Part shown: positions 3-47,119 of the stretch, piece after piece
Position numbering within the stretch: the first letter of the stretch is position 1
How the letters are laid out: each line of letters begins with the position of its first letter
IMG/VR virus record: IMGVR_UViG_3300035682_000005
Strand: one strand, 5' to 3'
Source: a virus
Length of the DNA stretch: 64,000 nucleotides
Notes under the pieces: generated by a model
What the model was told of the DNA's origin: nothing
Seen by the model: the letters and a program-made list of their open reading frames with translations, nothing else
Databases searched by the model: none
Translations under genes and position numbers: made by a program

Positions 3-899
3 TTGTTCTGTAAGAGAGTCAACATTCCGTTTGATGTGTATGGATTTACTGATTCGTATGCTGCCCGTAGAAATTTACCTGCACATCCAACTAACAATGG
101 TTCGTTGTACTTTGACCCACATTTTTGTCTCAGACAATACTTCAGTAGCAGAATGAGCGGACATGAATTTAACGCTGCCCTTCAGAACGTTATATGCATC
201 ATGCGACACTACTCTGGTCAGTTAATGAGTGGTCTTCCTTCAGAAGAAATATTGAACACAACTCCACTTGTGCCAACTATCATGACCGCAATACCTTTAG
301 TTCAGAAGTTCCGTAATGACTACAACCTTGATATTGTCAACACCATCTTCTTAACTGATGGTGAAGACACTCACGGACTGTTGTATCACTCTCAGACTGG
401 TGACTCAAAATATTTTGCTTGTGACCGCTACGGGTTCAATCGTATTACTGAAAAGTATTATGTTCGTGATGTTAAGACTCGCAAACAGTGGGAGATTAAG
501 AATACAACAAACGATATGTTAAACATTCTCCGTGAGACTGCCGGTGTAAAGACCATTGGGTTTCACATCATTCGTAAGAGAGATGTGTCACACGTTGTTG
601 GGCGATACACTAAGAATTCTAAAGAAGAACAAGAACATGTTGAGTGCTTCAAGAATAATAAGTTTGCTGAGATGACGAACATCCCCGGTTACGATGCGTA
701 CTATTTGATACCATCTGGCTCAAGTTTGAATGTTGGTGACGATGAGTTTGAAGGAACCGTTGATACTACTGTTGATTGGAATGATGAGAAACAGGCGAAG
801 AAAGCGATAAAAGTAGTTCAGAAAAATTTCAATAATTTCATGAAGCAAAAAGTAACAAGCCGTATCTTATTGAATCGATTCATTGAGCATATATCGTAA
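3..899 (+). CDS. VWA-domain (CobT-like) partner of MoxR ATPase, 5'-truncated
   Basis: TPL and IFLTDGE motifs of a VWA MIDAS; directly upstream of a MoxR AAA+ gene as in T4-like phages. Confidence 0.75.
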   Translation: MFCKRVNIPFDVYGFTDSYAARRNLPAHPTNNGSLYFDPHFCLRQYFSSRMSGHEFNAALQNVICIMRHYSGQLMSGLPSEEILNTTPLVPTIMTAIPLVQKFRNDYNLDIVNTIFLTDGEDTHGLLYHSQTGDSKYFACDRYGFNRITEKYYVRDVKTRKQWEIKNTTNDMLNILRETAGVKTIGFHIIRKRDVSHVVGRYTKNSKEEQEHVECFKNNKFAEMTNIPGYDAYYLIPSGSSLNVGDDEFEGTVDTTVDWNDEKQAKKAIKVVQKNFNNFMKQKVTSRILLNRFIEHIS

Positions 900-929
900 G
901 TTGTTGAAATCGCATAGGTGGAATAGTTG

Positions 930-959
930 TTGACTCTGCCATCCTGGATGTGATATAAT
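930..959 (+). promoter_or_regulatory. sigma70-type promoter
   Basis: TTGACT-18-TATAAT with extended TG. Confidence 0.7.
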
Positions 960-991
960 GAATCATATCGTGAATGTAGTATCGTTTAGGA

Positions 992-2251
992 ATGTTTATG
1001 AATACAAAAAACAACAAACAAGAATTCTTGAATGCGTTTGTATCTGAGTTTGGACGCTCGGCTGTAAGACGTTCTGAAGTCAAGAACTTTGCTAATCAGA
1101 AAGGATTTTTAAACCTTCGCTGGTTTATGTCCGACGACACATACAAGTGCTCCCGTGGCATGTACTGTGTGCCGTCTAGCCCGATGAATCAGGAGCTAGT
1201 TGATGCTCCGATGATGCAATCTGTTTCAACACCACTTGAATCCCTTGGTGTTGTTCACTCGTTTATTGGTGAACTTCCTCGTGAAAATCATATTCCAGAA
1301 GTTGATAAGCTATTCGTAAAGCATGGTGAATTTGATCTTGTCTCTCGCATTCTCGGATCAAAACTTTTCTATCCAATTTTCATTACTGGTCTCTCCGGCA
1401 ACGGTAAGACCTTCGGTGTAGAACAAGCCTGTGCCGCTCATCATCGTGAAATGTTCCGCGTCAACATCACAATTGAAACTGATGAGGACGACCTTCTCGG
1501 AGGTTTCCGTCTTGTGAATGATAGCACAAAGTGGTTCGATGGACCTGTAATTCGTGCTATGAAAAGCGGCGGTGTGTTACTACTTGATGAAGTTGACCTT
1601 GGTAGCAATAAACTCCTTTGCTTGCAACCTGTACTCGAAGGTAAGGGTATCTTGCTAAAGAAGATTAACCAATTCGTCAAGCCAGCTCCTGGTTTTACTA
1701 TCGTAGCCACTGCAAACACTAAAGGACAAGGATCTGAGACTGGCAAGTTCGTTGGTACTAACATTCTCAACGAAGCATTCCTTGAGCGATTTTGCGCCAC
1801 GTTTGAGCAGAAGTATCCAGAAGAGCGTGTGGAGAAGAGCATTCTCAAAAAGTTGTTCTCCTCTCATGGACTCAAGTCCGATGTCATCGAAGATTTTATT
1901 ACTAAACTTGTCACATGGGCATTTGGCACTCGTAAGACTTTTGAGACTGGCGGAACTTCCGATCTCATTAGTACACGCCGACTTGTACATATTGTGAATG
2001 CGTATGTAATCCTCGGACATCCAGCCGACGAGGCAGATCGCAAAACAATTGGCGAACGCCGTAAGCAAGCAATTGAGTTGTGTATTGCACGATTCGATGA
2101 AAGCACAAAGATCTCATTCATGAACTTCTATGAGAACATCGATCCATACTTAAACATGGACGATGGCTCAAAACCAGTTGAATCGAATGAGAGTGAGCAG
2201 TTGGAATCAAAAGAGCACGATATTCTTTCGATACTGACTAATCAATCATAA
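992..2251 (+). CDS. MoxR/CobS-like AAA+ ATPase
   Basis: Walker A GLSGNGKT, Walker B LLLDEVD, ATANT, AFLERF, STRRL. Confidence 0.9.
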   Translation: MFMNTKNNKQEFLNAFVSEFGRSAVRRSEVKNFANQKGFLNLRWFMSDDTYKCSRGMYCVPSSPMNQELVDAPMMQSVSTPLESLGVVHSFIGELPRENHIPEVDKLFVKHGEFDLVSRILGSKLFYPIFITGLSGNGKTFGVEQACAAHHREMFRVNITIETDEDDLLGGFRLVNDSTKWFDGPVIRAMKSGGVLLLDEVDLGSNKLLCLQPVLEGKGILLKKINQFVKPAPGFTIVATANTKGQGSETGKFVGTNILNEAFLERFCATFEQKYPEERVEKSILKKLFSSHGLKSDVIEDFITKLVTWAFGTRKTFETGGTSDLISTRRLVHIVNAYVILGHPADEADRKTIGERRKQAIELCIARFDESTKISFMNFYENIDPYLNMDDGSKPVESNESEQLESKEHDILSILTNQS

Positions 2252-2277
2252 TTGTTCCAGACAATACTACATTCCGT

Positions 2278-2311
2278 GCCCCGTTGCCAATTCTGGCAAC
2301 GGGGCTTTTTT
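2278..2311 (+). terminator. intrinsic terminator
   Basis: GCCCCGTTGCCA-attc-TGGCAACGGGGC followed by T run. Confidence 0.9.
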
Positions 2312-2419
2312 ATTTTTATTTTCTTGATGTGTCGATTGCGTTATGATATTGTATGTGAAAGTGGGATGACCACTTAATTGATAGAAGTACATTTGTACAA
2401 TTTGTTTATAAGGATAATT

Positions 2420-2680
2420 ATGTCAACTAGCACATCTCAAAGCGCAAAGCTCGTTCGTCGTCTTAGCACTGGAAAGAACCTTACGGTAACTGAAGCCCGT
2501 GGCAAGTATGGTATTGCTCGTCTCGCCGCGCGAATTCATGAGCTTCGTGAAGCTGGATTTCCTATCTATACGAATAAGGTTCGTGTTAAGGGTGGTTCTA
2601 ACAAGGGTCGTGTTGTAACTGCATATCGTCTTGCAGTAGATGCTACTCCAAAGTCGCTCTTCTCTTCGTTCACTGCGTAA
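2420..2680 (+). CDS. small winged helix-turn-helix DNA-binding protein
   Basis: LTVTEARGKYGIARLAARIHELREAG pattern; AGGA upstream of ATG 2420. Confidence 0.75.
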   Translation: MSTSTSQSAKLVRRLSTGKNLTVTEARGKYGIARLAARIHELREAGFPIYTNKVRVKGGSNKGRVVTAYRLAVDATPKSLFSSFTA

Positions 2681-2696
2681 TTAAAAATTGATAAGT

Positions 2697-2729
2697 GGCA
2701 GCCCTTCTGATATAGTTGGGCTGCCTTTT
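2697..2729 (+). terminator. intrinsic terminator
   Basis: GGCAGCCC...GGGCTGCC then TTTT. Confidence 0.65.
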
Positions 2730-3877: not shown

Positions 3878-4831
3878 ATGAGCGAAGTTTCGCAAGATCG
3901 TAAGCATATTGTGTGGATGGAAAAGTATCGACCACAAACAGTCGATGAGTGTATTCTACCACAAGGTCTAAAAGATACATTTAATGGTATTGTAAAGAGT
4001 GGTGAGCTGCCGCATATGTTGTTTGCTGGAACAGCAGGTGTTGGTAAAACTACTGTAGCAAAAGCCCTGTGCAACGCACTTGACTATGACCACATTTTAA
4101 TCAATGCATCTGATGATCGCAACATTGATACACTTAGAACAACTGTAAAACAGTTTGCATCTTCTGTATCATTCAACGGCAGACGCAAAGTGATTATTCT
4201 CGACGAAGCCGATTACTTGAACCCTCAGAGCTTTCAGCCAGCACTTCGTGGCGTGATGGAAGAGTTCTCGAAGAATTGTTCGTTCATTCTCACTTGCAAT
4301 TTTAAGAATAAGATTATTGAGCCTCTTCAGTCTCGCTGTTCTGTCAAAGAGTTTAGAATCACAAAGCAAGAAAAGAAGAACATCATCGAAGCGTGTTACA
4401 AACGCATTGTGAAGATTCTTGAGGCAGAAAAAGTTGAGTTTGATGGTAAAGCACTTGCTGCAATCGTGGTAAAGTATTTCCCAGACATGCGACGATTGTT
4501 AAACGAGTTGCAAACATTCAGCAAAGAACACGGCAAGATTGATGAAGGTATTCTGACATTTGCTGGTGATGTAAACGTATCTCGTTTGTATAAGTCACTC
4601 AAAGAGAAAGACTATGGACACGTGCGTGAGTGGGTTGTTGAGAATTGTGATAATGATCCAACAATTATCTATCGAAAGATATATGATCATCTCAAGCAGA
4701 ACATGAAGACATCTTCGATACCTCTAGCAATTGTGACGATTGCAAAGTACATGAATCAGCAAGTTGTTGACCAAGAGATCAATCTGATGGCCTGTCTTAT
4801 TGAACTTGGTATGACTTGTGAGTTTGTATGA
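3878..4831 (+). CDS. 44: clamp loader large subunit (gp44)
   Basis: WMEKYRP, GTAGVGKTT, LDEAD, LQSRC. Confidence 0.95.
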   Translation: MSEVSQDRKHIVWMEKYRPQTVDECILPQGLKDTFNGIVKSGELPHMLFAGTAGVGKTTVAKALCNALDYDHILINASDDRNIDTLRTTVKQFASSVSFNGRRKVIILDEADYLNPQSFQPALRGVMEEFSKNCSFILTCNFKNKIIEPLQSRCSVKEFRITKQEKKNIIEACYKRIVKILEAEKVEFDGKALAAIVVKYFPDMRRLLNELQTFSKEHGKIDEGILTFAGDVNVSRLYKSLKEKDYGHVREWVVENCDNDPTIIYRKIYDHLKQNMKTSSIPLAIVTIAKYMNQQVVDQEINLMACLIELGMTCEFV

Positions 4832-8281: not shown

Positions 8282-9748
8282 ATGACAACAGAACGTTTCT
8301 ACACGAATTGCACATGCATCGGCAACAACATTTTATATCGCGGCATTGAAGGTGGCAAACGAGTTTCAAAAAAGTTTACGTTCAAGCCAAAATTGTTTGT
8401 TCCAACGAACAAGCAAACAAAGTGGAAGACTCTCGATGGCAAGTTTGTTGATAAGATTGAGTTTCAAGATATCAATGATGCAAAAGAGTTCGTCCGCAAG
8501 TATGAAGGTGTAGACAACTTCGTGTACTACGGAAACACAAAGTATCAGTACGTTCATTTAGCTGATGCGTTTCCTCAAATGGTTGATTATGATTTCTCTC
8601 GCATTGTTATTGCCAATATAGATATTGAGGTAGCTTCCGAAGGCGGGTTTGCTCCACCTGAGAATCCGTTTGAAGAAGTGATAGCAATAACTGTTGAAAG
8701 CAATAACACATATGTTGTCTTTGGCTGCGGCGAGTTCACATCTTCAAAAGATAATGTCAAATACATTCGTTGTGAGAATGAAGCTGATCTTCTTCGACGT
8801 TTTATGGCGCATTGGGAACATCTTGCTCCAGACATTGTAACTGGCTGGAACGTTCAGTTCTACGATATACCGTACATGGTGAATAGAATCTCTCGTGTCT
8901 TTGGTGACAAAGAAGCAAAGAGAATGTCACCTTGGAAATATCTCTCAACTCGATCGGCAGCATACAAAGGTCGTATGCATCAAGTTGTTGAGCTTGTTGG
9001 CATCTCTACACTTGATTACATTGAAATGTACAGAAAGTATCAGCCTCGCCAAGAGAGTGAGAAGTTGAACTACATTGCATACGCAGAACTAGGTGAGAAG
9101 AAGATCTCATATGAAGAGTATGGTGACTTGCACACACTTTACAAGAGCAATTACCAAAAGTTTATCGAGTATAACATCAAAGACGTTGAACTTGTGCGCA
9201 AACTTGAAGAAAAGCTGAAACTCATTGAGATGGTTGTTGCACTTGCCTACGACGCCAGAGTGAATTATGTTGATACGTTTGCACAAGTGCGCATGTGGGA
9301 TACAATCATTTACAACCATCTCAAACATCAAAACATTGTGCTGCCACGATTAGTTCAAAATAACAAAAGTTCTGATTATGCTGGCGCGTATGTAAAAGAA
9401 GTTATTCCAGGTATGTATGAGTGGGTCGTCTCATTTGACTTAAACTCTCTGTATCCCAACTTGATTGCACAATTTAATATCTCACCTGAGTGTTTACTCA
9501 CAGACCAGTATCGCCATGTGACTGTTCAATCTCTTCTAGCAAAGCAAGTTGATACCAGCGATGTGAAGCAAAGTAATATTGGTCTTGCAGCCAACGGTCA
9601 TTGTTTTAGTAACGACAAGATTGGATTCTTGCCAGACATTCTCATGCGCATGTATGAAGACCGTAAGGTGTACAAAAACAAAATGTTGGTTGCTCAAAAA
9701 GAATTGGAGCGAGTAAAAGAAGAACTCCATCGTCGTGGATTGCAATAA
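8282..9748 (+). CDS. 43A: family B DNA polymerase, N-terminal half (gp43A: exonuclease, palm motif A, first fingers helix)
   Basis: DIEV, GWNVQFYD, YNIKDV, SFDLNSLYP; stops before motif B. Confidence 0.95.
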   Translation: MTTERFYTNCTCIGNNILYRGIEGGKRVSKKFTFKPKLFVPTNKQTKWKTLDGKFVDKIEFQDINDAKEFVRKYEGVDNFVYYGNTKYQYVHLADAFPQMVDYDFSRIVIANIDIEVASEGGFAPPENPFEEVIAITVESNNTYVVFGCGEFTSSKDNVKYIRCENEADLLRRFMAHWEHLAPDIVTGWNVQFYDIPYMVNRISRVFGDKEAKRMSPWKYLSTRSAAYKGRMHQVVELVGISTLDYIEMYRKYQPRQESEKLNYIAYAELGEKKISYEEYGDLHTLYKSNYQKFIEYNIKDVELVRKLEEKLKLIEMVVALAYDARVNYVDTFAQVRMWDTIIYNHLKHQNIVLPRLVQNNKSSDYAGAYVKEVIPGMYEWVVSFDLNSLYPNLIAQFNISPECLLTDQYRHVTVQSLLAKQVDTSDVKQSNIGLAANGHCFSNDKIGFLPDILMRMYEDRKVYKNKMLVAQKELERVKEELHRRGLQ

Positions 9749-43392: not shown

Positions 43393-43436
43393 AAAAATTG
43401 AATTTGGATATTCTACATAGTATATTGACAGTATAG

Positions 43437-43836
43437 GGGCCTGCGTAGTTTCGACGAGATATAGGAACTATATTCCCTCAACACGATGATGATCCTTGGC
43501 ATCGTAATAAATGGATCACCGTTTAAGTGCAAACTTTGACGCAAATGCTTATAGCCTAGCCGCATAAGCCATGGTTTGAATCTTGTAGTTCGCTAACGTT
43601 CAAACTGTGTAGATGAAGCGAACCGGTGCTCACAGATGACCATCCGTTATGTGAGGTTAAAACTTAATCTTGGGTGGGAATGCTGATTGATCAGCCCCTT
43701 GTGACTGAACGTTGTCTGAACACAATGTCAACGGGGTTAAGAGCCTGGAAAGCTAGAAGAGTTCAGTCTATTGTTGTAAACGGATATGAGAGAAAATATC
43801 TTGAACGCCGGGTGCAACTCCCGGCCAGGTCCACCA
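43437..43836 (+). ncRNA. ssrA: tmRNA
   Basis: GGGCCTG pairs with CAGGTCC-ACCA (G3:U70 Ala identity), TTCGAC, T-arm CCGGG-TGCAACT-CCCGG, tag ORF 43529-43567 ANFDANAYSLAA*. Confidence 0.95.
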
Positions 43837-45497: not shown

Positions 45498-45854
45498 ATG
45501 AAGACTGTGATGTGTTCCATTCTTGTTTCTTTGGTTTGTTGTGTTAGTGCTAGTCATGCACAATACTATGAAGATCCTGGATTTGATTCCAATGATCCTT
45601 ACTACGATAACAGACGAGATCCTTATCAAGATAGAGAAGTGCGAGAAGAAGCGCGACGATCTCGTGTAGTAGAACAACGGGCTCATCGACGACACATTGC
45701 AGAGAGCGAAGAGCGCGATGATGCGTTTACAGAAGTCTATCGCGCTAACGTGCGCCGACAAGAGCAACAAAACAATATAGACACTGTTGAGCAGATAAAC
45801 GAAGCTGTACAGGGAATTGCAGCAACAGCAAACTTTATCAGTAACTTATTCTAG
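45498..45854 (+). CDS. exported hypothetical protein
   Basis: signal peptide ending ASHA; sigma70-like promoter 45461-45490. Confidence 0.6.
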   Translation: MKTVMCSILVSLVCCVSASHAQYYEDPGFDSNDPYYDNRRDPYQDREVREEARRSRVVEQRAHRRHIAESEERDDAFTEVYRANVRRQEQQNNIDTVEQINEAVQGIAATANFISNLF

Positions 45855-45909
45855 GTAAAAACTTTTAGGAAAAATGTCGTTCAGACATATTGGATTGTAT
45901 ATATAGTAT

Positions 45910-46072
45910 CACTCAAAGTAGCAGCCCCATTTCGACCAACGTGACGCTGGTAGCGCATAAAACTGCGTCTATAATTGGAAGACTTGGGATTCTGGCTTTG
46001 GGGTGTATTTTTGCTCTAGTGAGAGCAACACTGCCGACCCGCAGTAAAAGGGGAAATTGAGCTATGGCGCTT
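45910..46072 (+). ncRNA. putative structured RNA upstream of hammerhead
   Basis: GC-richer gap with no ORF in the track; stems GACGC/GCGTC, TTGCTCT/AGAGCAA, ACTGC/GCAGT. Confidence 0.5.
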
Positions 46073-46145
46073 CTGCACCTGACGAGCCCTGAAGGGCGAA
46101 ACAGAGCGTAGGCACGGCAACTATCGTGTCTCGCCTGTAGTGCAG
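46073..46145 (+). ncRNA. type I hammerhead ribozyme
   Basis: stem I CTGCAC/GTGCAG, core CTGACGA, stem II GCCC-TGAA-GGGC, GAAA, extended stem III, GTA cleavage triplet (cut after 46139). Confidence 0.9.
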
Positions 46146-46149
46146 TAAA

Positions 46150-46887
46150 TCAAATTGTGACGATCACAGCATTCGCTGGTGTCTTATCTTGAACAACTAT
46201 TCTTCCAGCACTATCGCCTCTTGATGGTGACTTGCCATATATTTTTGGTGTGCCGGAACCATCCTTTGATGCTGGATCAAACCTTTGATCTTCTCTTCGT
46301 GCTCTAAGGCGAAAATACAAGTGATGTGTCTTTGCGTAATTCTTTGCTTCATGTAGTGTGCCATTCACAACTAAAAGATTTTTCTTGTCATCATATGCAC
46401 CTGTCACGTTCATTGGACCTATGTACATGTAATGAATTGGTCCACCCATAGCAGCATTACCCACCACAATTTTCAGTTTATCGGCATCAGGTATTTTACC
46501 ATACACATCTGGCACTTTATCACCAACACGAAGTTTCAGTTTTTTGGTCAGATGATTGTATACTTTTGTTAGAAACTTTTTTGCAATGCCTGGCACGGCC
46601 AATTCAAGACCTTTTAATCCACCTCCAGCCAATGATGGTGCCGACTCGCCTTTAAGTGACAGGTTTACTTTCTCGATCTTTTTACCTTTCTTGACATGTA
46701 GAACAACATCTGTGTATGGTTCAGATCCGCCAGCTTGTCGTCCCGAAAACTTTTCGGCTTTGATAACACCTGCAATTTTAATGTCTCCCGCAACAAGGGT
46801 GACAGGGTTGTTTTTATTCTTTTTTATAGCGTCTGCTATTTTTTTGATGAGCCCTTTTTCCTGTCGCTCCGCCGAATTTCCAGCCAT
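46150..46887 (-). CDS. PD-(D/E)XK restriction-fold-like protein
   Basis: E..E, YTDV..LSLK; minus-strand TAAATA at 46920-46925. Confidence 0.55.
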   Translation of the reverse strand: MAGNSAERQEKGLIKKIADAIKKNKNNPVTLVAGDIKIAGVIKAEKFSGRQAGGSEPYTDVVLHVKKGKKIEKVNLSLKGESAPSLAGGGLKGLELAVPGIAKKFLTKVYNHLTKKLKLRVGDKVPDVYGKIPDADKLKIVVGNAAMGGPIHYMYIGPMNVTGAYDDKKNLLVVNGTLHEAKNYAKTHHLYFRLRARREDQRFDPASKDGSGTPKIYGKSPSRGDSAGRIVVQDKTPANAVIVTI

Positions 46888-47119
46888 ACACTATACCTAA
46901 ACCAAAATTTGTGTAGTGTTATTTATGCTGGAAGTTTTGTATCCAAATTGGTCAACAATATCTGTGACACTTGAATCGTGGAATATTAAACATCACTTTT
47001 TAAGTTTCAAAAAATAAGCCAAAAAAGACTGTGTTGACACATTAGTTCTCGACATCAGTACCATCTTGTTGTATTATAGAGGCAGTCGCATAAATTCTGG
47101 ATGTCTTTTCTTTTTGTAT

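Follow-up and report, generated by a model that had tools for sequence, protein, structure and literature searches.

A structured RNA closed by a type I hammerhead ribozyme in the genomes of freshwater T4-like phages

The DNA considered here is a stretch of 64,000 nucleotides (nt), IMG/VR virus record IMGVR_UViG_3300035682_000005, to which we refer at its full length as the window. Its proteins include PhoH, an ATP-dependent DNA ligase, gp59 and gp32, and the window can therefore be assigned to a T4-like myovirus. On its plus strand, next to a convergent gene, lies a non-coding region in which a conserved structured 5' domain is joined to a complete hammerhead ribozyme. Homologues of this composite make up a family of 14 distinct members on contigs of T4-like phages from lakes and freshwater, and its parts in the window are as follows.

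45890..45907, plus strand: promoter-like element TTGGAT..TATATATAGT, with a TATATATAG box at 45898-906, ending about 6 nt before P1
45912..46002, plus strand: P1, a 91-nt irregular hairpin of six helical segments, with its apical stem at 45943-49/45963-69
45949..45963, plus strand: apical loop of P1, GGUAGCGCAUAAAAC, in which GGUAGCGCA is invariant in all members
46013..46026, plus strand: P2, hairpin GCUCU-AGUG-AGAGC, present at this place in 13 of the 14 members
46030..46045, plus strand: optional hairpin ACUGC-CGACCC-GCAGU, in the window and contig L106 only
46046..46072, plus strand: purine-rich linker, then the junction GAGCUAUGGCGCUU (46059-72), directly 5' of stem I
46073-46145, plus strand: type I hammerhead ribozyme, from direct reading, folding, motif scan and comparison
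46073-78/46140-45, plus strand: stem I, CUGCAC/GUGCAG, 6 pairs
46079-85, plus strand: core CUGACGA, by direct reading
46086-97, plus strand: stem II, GCCC-UGAA-GGGC, by direct reading
46098-101, plus strand: GAAA, in which A46101 pairs with U46138
46102-37, plus strand: stem III, a 13-pair helix with two single-base bulges
46139..46140, plus strand: predicted cleavage site GUA/G, from hammerhead geometry

Given that both ends of the RNA lie in stem I, the ribozyme is of type I, and a cut after A46139 would leave nearly the whole of it on the upstream fragment and thus set the 3' end of that RNA. Hammerhead cleavage gives a 5' product ending in a 2',3'-cyclic phosphate and a 3' product starting with a 5'-hydroxyl. 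When 46066-46152 was folded, the minimum-energy structure was exactly the hammerhead three-way junction (-33.6 kcal/mol, z = -2.4); by direct reading and in this fold the hammerhead is complete and of type I, with every element at the coordinates given by a first-pass annotation of the DNA made from its letters. In a motif scan it was the sole hammerhead on either strand of the window. At a relaxed setting that asked for stems of 5, 3 and 3 pairs, 300 simulated windows gave 5 matches; with the 6, 4 and 3 pairs of the observed motif 300 such windows gave none, and the motif is not a product of chance.

Comparison with the hammerhead models of Rfam 15, the check that the first-pass annotation had proposed, gave matches below threshold. 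The core aligned perfectly in HH9, and none of the hammerhead models was matched at its gathering score: with lax filters HH9 gave 23.4 bits in the window and 26.9-31.7 bits in relatives against a threshold of 52, and the type III model gave 24-28 bits against a threshold of 48.5. The shortfall in HH9 is due to a 31-nt insert in stem III and to the missing distal part of stem I. We identified no tertiary contact between stems I and II, loop II being a variable NNNA, stem I having no internal loop and the 3' tail being unconserved; such a contact, either loop-loop or pseudoknot, is needed for fast hammerhead cleavage at cellular Mg2+, and the invariant junction, perhaps through pairing with the P1 loop, might stand in for it. 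A search for a second hammerhead in five partial contigs of relatives found none, each having one copy.

The first homologues were obtained by pattern scans of IMG/VR with the ribozyme and with the upstream hairpin loop, and two contigs appeared in both lists with equal spacing. More members came from a profile search of the fetched loci, from a metagenome scan, and from contigs encoding a nucleotidyltransferase that neighbours the RNA. The family so assembled comprises the window, L106, L050, L098, L287, L070, L126, L288, L063, L076, L284, L285, L292 and L295; L098 and L291 carry the same RNA and were counted once. Searches of metagenomes and IMG/VR with P1 only returned hammerhead-bearing copies and, beyond these, two unrelated GC-rich chance matches, and the 5' domain never occurs without the hammerhead. 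A pattern joining junction and hammerhead had no matches in GTDB genomes.

The hammerhead core (C3 U4 G5 A6 N7 G8 A9 and G12 A13 A14) is kept in all 14 members, with position 7 a C, or an A in L284. The canonical junction was the minimum-energy structure in each of the 12 members that were folded in isolation; L292 and L295 have the same stems by sequence, and stems II and III are kept in their full-length folds. Stem I occurs as CUGCAC/GUGCAG, UUGCAC/GUGCAA, CCGCAC/GUGUGG and CUGCAC/GUGUAG, the changes being C-G to U-A in L076, U-A to C-G in L285, and G.U in both L284 and L285, so that two pairs are changed on both sides and one on one side while 100% of cells remain paired. For stem III the members fall into three versions of quite different sequence (such as GCG..GGCACG, GUGAAUACG and GGUAGA..CAGG), each a long, near-perfect helix, with 13-20 pairs across the family. 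Stem II, GCCC/GGGC beneath an NNNA tetraloop, is invariant and hence uninformative as to covariation. The cleavage triplet is GUA, GUC or GUU and never GUG; in hammerhead chemistry the nucleotide before the cut (position 17) is not G. Together these comparisons indicate that selection maintains the hammerhead as such in all 14 homologues.

Covariation in the 5' domain was assessed by counting pairs in P1 and in hammerhead stems I and II over 12 members, all but L292 and L295 (alignment A3); stem III was left outside the count, the MAFFT alignments A5 and A6 not being structural. In these 12 sequences 95.2% of cells were paired, as against 28-42% with the partners slid, and 14 pairs (12 of them in P1) had both sides changed, the slid controls giving 2-7 such pairs. 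For covariation the score was 0.262 and in these controls at most 0.073, and on four of five measures none of 500 shuffles came to the observed value. By this count the hairpins that the first-pass annotation had drawn upstream of the ribozyme are conserved and covary, and the covariation of P1 is strong. The internal loops of P1 are conserved too, among them UUCRA at 45932-36. P2 is fully compensated in L284, where it reads GCACCC/GGGUGC; no clear P2 could be drawn in L076.

The region between P2 and the junction is far less uniform. An H-type pseudoknot had been suggested here from ACUGC...GCAGU (46030-45) and a following GGGG, and it does not stand as a feature of the RNA: both elements are found only in the window and its closest relative L106, the hairpin being a lineage-specific insertion that the 12 other members lack. 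At the site of this optional hairpin L063, L292 and L295 each form an unrelated hairpin that runs into 4-5 U, and the other nine members form none. These terminator-like hairpins, placed between P2 and the hammerhead, lie at about 8330-8360 (minus strand) in L063, 5210-5245 (plus strand) in L292 and 4270-4300 (plus strand) in L295.

Conservation returns in the junction, where UAUGGCG is invariant in 14 of 14 members and the wider GAGCUAUGGCGC(U/A)U shows no more than a single-base difference in 12 of them, L076 and L285 departing further. For comparison, IMG/VR held 88 other matches to the stem II pattern GCCC-NNNN-GGGC, of which 62 (51 distinct) pass the type I test, on unrelated phage contigs. 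The junction is missing from all 51 of these distinct phage hammerheads, which have the same stem II, and it is therefore not a hammerhead requirement. Its complement was sought elsewhere in the window, where the only hit was one chance match in coding sequence.

Upstream of P1, with a constant spacing of about 6 nt, 13 of the 14 members have a TA(T/A)ATA(G) box, reading TATATATAG, CTAAATAG or GATAAATAC, which bears out the promoter-like element that had been noticed near 45899. A sigma-70-type scan of the window reads TTCAGA-16-TATAGT, which is -10-like; several of the boxes, those with CTAAATAG or GATAAATAC, resemble the core of T4-type late promoters. Separately, a TTGG-N7-12-ATAGT motif is found just upstream of a transfer-messenger RNA (tmRNA) gene in the window (43404-43421, plus strand, reading TTGGAT..CATAGT), of the RNA (45890-45907, plus strand) and of the convergent gene (46890-46905, minus strand). 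The window has seven copies of this motif where 2.7 are expected, seven being reached in 3 of 100 shuffles, and it may represent a promoter class.

The 5' domain matched no Rfam 15 family at threshold, in agreement with the first-pass statement that the RNA of about 230 nt could not be placed in a known family. ARAGORN detected no transfer RNA (tRNA) in the window, and Rfam gave no tRNA or Y-RNA-like match at E <= 10 within 45800-46250; likeness to tRNA is confined to short strings, the D-loop-like GGUAGCGCA and the T-loop-like UUCRA. Drum RNA was considered as a ribozyme-associated RNA and dropped, as its own paper contradicts the association and Rfam gave no match.

The nearest isolate relative of the gp32 of the window is that of Synechococcus phage S-SRM01, at 59% identity, and the source DNA is present in lake-water and freshwater metagenomes. 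A blastn search of 50,697 phage records found no match to the RNA in distant mode, and none to 20 kb of the window with megablast; the RNA is thus in no isolate phage. In the window it is flanked by the following genes.

43437-43836, plus strand: one-piece tmRNA, Rfam RF00023, 59.3 bits
44255-44330, plus strand: CyVA-1 RNA, Rfam RF02965, 45.6 bits
44575-45438, plus strand: Pol-beta-type nucleotidyltransferase gene, 287 amino acids (aa), adjoining the RNA genes
46150-46887, minus strand: convergent gene, 245 aa, family unassigned, with its stop codon 4 nt from the hammerhead end

In all loci long enough to be read the order on one strand is PhoH, tmRNA, CyVA-1, nucleotidyltransferase, small gene, RNA, a variable slot, DNA ligase, gp59 and gp32, save that L076 has no nucleotidyltransferase gene. 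The RNA unit is always downstream of a phage tmRNA, which stands at the equivalent place in the loci of five relatives (61-75 bits), and CyVA-1 also precedes it where the contig covers that part, above threshold in three relatives and below it in two. CyVA-1 has an ATAAATA box upstream (44235-41) and is followed by a hairpin and T-run, an ordinary terminator. Ahead of the RNA, again where the contig covers it, every member except L076 has the nucleotidyltransferase gene, and four more distant relatives (L293, L294, L296 and L297) keep this gene and lack the RNA. The gene immediately upstream of the RNA varies, encoding 118, 71, 83 or 170 aa, and in the window ends at 45854; a pattern search with the 118-aa gene gave no relatives.

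The variable slot, bounded by hammerhead and DNA ligase, is hypervariable, with six unrelated gene families, all convergent, over the eight loci compared (the window, L050, L106, L063, L070, L076, L292 and L295). The gene downstream of the RNA is convergent in eight of the nine family loci in which it could be read, and its stop lies within a few nt of the ribozyme or overlaps it; in L098/L291 the next gene is a co-directional Hsp20. The slot gene of L076 resembles a type II restriction enzyme (PADLOC, 3e-10). The 245-aa gene of the window is 83% identical to the slot gene of L295, and at 47 IMG/VR loci with relatives of this gene none has the RNA beside it, so that we regard the gene as cargo and not as a partner of the RNA.

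On this evidence the unit is probably a structured small RNA that is confined to one lineage of freshwater T4-like myophages and transcribed on its own, and its type I hammerhead would generate the 3' end. Transcription would start a few nt after the TA(T/A)ATAG box, at about 45912, and the nascent RNA would fold into P1, P2 and the hammerhead, as the folds and covariation indicate. From the motif, the hammerhead should cut after A46139 and yield an RNA of about 228 nt that keeps stems II and III and ends one nt past the 13-pair hairpin, with a 2',3'-cyclic phosphate. A hairpin end of this kind offers no single-stranded 3'-hydroxyl tail to 3' exonucleases or tailing, and it may therefore stabilise the RNA. 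The same cut would sever polymerase read-through that would otherwise run antisense to the abutting convergent gene, and in making an end and severing read-through the ribozyme would do the work of the missing terminator. The first-pass annotation had proposed just these two roles, defining the 3' end and stopping read-through; the type I topology, the convergent gene at eight of nine loci and a terminator scan, which found no intrinsic terminator after the ribozyme in the window, as that annotation had also noted, lend the proposal support at the level of sequence.

If the hammerhead makes the end, then P1, P2 and the junction would be the functional body of the RNA, and the invariant loops (GGUAGCGCA and UUCRA) and junction suggest a specific partner, whether a protein or another RNA. 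The presence of two RNA genes, tmRNA and CyVA-1, on the same strand is a synteny that fits a dedicated RNA gene. The hammerhead itself belongs to a well-known class; the composite of a 5' domain and a 3' hammerhead has not been described as a family before, and it employs the ribozyme in an unusual way. Phage genomes often contain hammerheads, whose roles are mostly unclear and which are usually read as cutting between cistrons. A hammerhead joined to a covarying non-coding RNA within an RNA-gene block provides a testable case of a ribozyme that acts as a 3'-end maker instead of a terminator. The family is also new to Rfam 15 as a structured RNA, and its 14 sequences with their supported secondary structure would suffice as the seed of a covariance model.

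Several points weigh against a separately made, self-ended small RNA. Transcription, the 5' end and cleavage are all predictions from sequence, and given that no contact between stems I and II was seen and that stem I has only 6 pairs, the rate of cleavage at cellular Mg2+ is uncertain. The promoter-like box is absent from L076, and the lack of a terminator between the upstream gene and the RNA makes read-through transcripts possible in principle. In L063, L292 and L295 the U-run hairpins may end the RNA earlier and reduce the ribozyme to a back-up cut, and the co-directional Hsp20 of L098/L291 means that shielding a convergent gene is not a universal purpose.

Some of these same observations would suit an RNA that is not independent at all, the unit being instead the structured 3' end of an upstream operon of nucleotidyltransferase and small gene, in which P1 and P2 would serve as a stability element of the 3' untranslated region and the hammerhead as a processing or insulating cut of the kind made between phage cistrons. 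The absence of any terminator between 45854, where the upstream gene ends, and P1 is in keeping with this proposal, as are the nucleotidyltransferase gene ahead of the RNA in all members but L076, the loss of the promoter-like box in that member, and the fact that phage hammerheads are usually found where RNA is processed between cistrons (PMC3088659). On the other hand, 13 of the 14 members preserve the box and its spacing from P1, whatever gene adjoins on the upstream side, RNA and nucleotidyltransferase can each occur without the other (the RNA in L076, the enzyme gene in L293, L294, L296 and L297), and the conserved detail of P1 goes far beyond what a protective 3' hairpin needs. We consider an operon end unlikely.

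A different departure from a self-ended small RNA, and one that we hold to be decidedly unlikely even with its two branches taken together, is that the 5' domain and junction act with the hammerhead, either as a sensor or scaffold that gates cleavage or as a decoy resembling the tRNA elbow. In the decoy branch the loops GGUAGCGCA and UUCRA would supply the resemblance, and the cyclic-phosphate end may be a substrate or trap for RNA repair, tailing or defence enzymes; with the tmRNA, CyVA-1 and the nucleotidyltransferase, the RNA may then form a module that manipulates host translation or RNA-targeting defence. Were it true that the 5' domain controls the ribozyme or mimics tRNA, the RNA would be of much greater interest, and the sensor branch, if true, would make it the first natural allosteric hammerhead.

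It is improbable, in turn, that the whole of the roughly 230 nt is one elaborate ribozyme, in which the 5' domain scaffolds or senses and what matters is the regulated cut and not the released RNA. The P1 loop AGCGC could, for example, pair with the junction GCGCU next to stem I, a complementarity of 4-5 pairs of which the sole variant, L285, keeps a G.U; the 5' domain and hammerhead are never found apart; the invariant junction abuts stem I and is peculiar to this family among the phage hammerheads compared; and with no ordinary contact of stems I and II visible, another stabiliser may be needed. Yet the P1 loop and the junction are both invariant and hence provide no covariation, in each of the 12 members folded in isolation the hammerhead reaches its correct fold unaided, and we know of no natural ligand-controlled hammerhead. 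A switch in which the junction would instead pair with the 5' strand of P1, as duplex folding had suggested, was rejected because this OFF-state pairing is broken in many homologues.

Far less credible is the view that the hammerhead-like motif is inactive or fortuitous. Its scores do lie under every Rfam hammerhead gathering threshold and no stabilising tertiary contact was identified. Against this, the low scores are accounted for by the length of the insert in stem III and by a distal stem I that is missing, none of the 300 simulated windows matched at the observed stringency, and the 14 members, whose flanks have diverged, share an unchanged core, covarying stems and a position 17 that is A, C or U. 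Least credible of all is that the region encodes a small protein, either the 56-aa open reading frame (ORF) at 45890-46060 in the ORF list or a 15-aa ORF from AUG 46064, to which GGGGA followed 9 nt on by AUG at 46050-66 lends some colour (a similar GGA...AUG spacing recurs in 10 of 14 members), since the 56-aa frame is interrupted by indels of 18-20 nt and its substitutions are paired compensatory changes, and since the 15-aa frame has a one-base shift in L285 and its conservation elsewhere is limited to positions that the hammerhead core fixes. Both coding and chance can be taken as effectively excluded.

As an observation in its own right, the 15-codon frame is preceded by purine-rich sequence resembling a Shine-Dalgarno site and extends from AUG 46064 across the hammerhead core to UAG 46109 (46050-46111 in all, plus strand). 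A non-stop message for the tmRNA was also considered, and was rejected because all frames close before the cleavage site.

Taken as a self-ended small RNA, the unit can be set beside other ribozymes on phage RNAs. Phage hammerheads have been read as cutting polycistronic mRNA, or between cistrons (Perreault et al. 2011, PMC3088659; Rfam clan CL00010). The type I hammerheads of phages and prophages share with the lake RNA the core, the three-stem topology, an identical stem II and their setting in tailed-phage genomes. In most of the 51 distinct comparison hammerheads a ribosome-binding site and a start codon follow immediately, and in most of them stem III is short, at 4-6 pairs, whereas the ribozyme of the lake RNA closes a structured RNA with an invariant junction, has a stem III of 13-20 pairs and usually faces a convergent gene, and so would make a 3' end and not the 5' end of a messenger. 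Among the comparison loci (L048-L141) a tRNA gene occurs in 7 of 87, the nearest on the same strand being 303 nt away.

The nearest published idea is that of theta ribozymes, minimal ribozymes of the hepatitis delta virus (HDV)-like class that occur next to phage tRNA genes, in phages reported to be enriched in nucleotidyltransferase genes (Kienbeck et al. 2024, PMC10879173). Here too a small self-cleaving ribozyme sits on a phage non-coding RNA and is read as an end-processing device, and here too there is a link to a nucleotidyltransferase gene, a Pol-beta type adjoining the lake RNA. The theta ribozymes, however, are HDV-like, attached to tRNAs and found in gut phages; the lake RNA carries a hammerhead, is not a tRNA and belongs to T4-like phages of lakes. 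CyVA-1 and the phage tmRNA share with the lake RNA its strand, its conserved RNA-gene block and its phage lineage, but neither resembles it in sequence or structure, and CyVA-1 ends by its ordinary terminator.

The sole likeness to a known family lies in the apical hairpin of P1, whose loop GGUAGCGCAUA-AAC aligns with positions 111-137 of IMES-2 (RF02035, from marine metagenomes) with 13 identical loop positions. The alignment takes in only 27 of the 141 model positions and scores 15.7 bits (E = 0.11) where the gathering score is 54.7, and the rest of P1 is unaligned; seven other members gave no IMES-2 match at E <= 1. Loci sharing the IMES-2-like loop string were chance matches in coding sequence, and three that had the stem were not IMES-2. 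The relation to IMES-2 would therefore amount to a shared loop motif at most.

The nucleotidyltransferase that adjoins the RNA has relatives in about 100 clusters, all on phage-like contigs. A sequence search of PDB gave no match to it, and with an AlphaFold model (pLDDT 74.9) the Foldseek matches were weak (E >= 5e-3), to the folds of ANT/AadA, MNT, TENT5 and CD-NTase; the enzyme resembles minimal or ANT-type nucleotidyltransferases and not CCA-adding enzymes. In L296, a more distant T4-like contig, its gene sits after an array of about a dozen tRNA genes: a long non-coding stretch upstream of the nucleotidyltransferase (700-2700, plus strand) holds about a dozen tRNA-like genes, and 700-1000 is a further structured-looking region.

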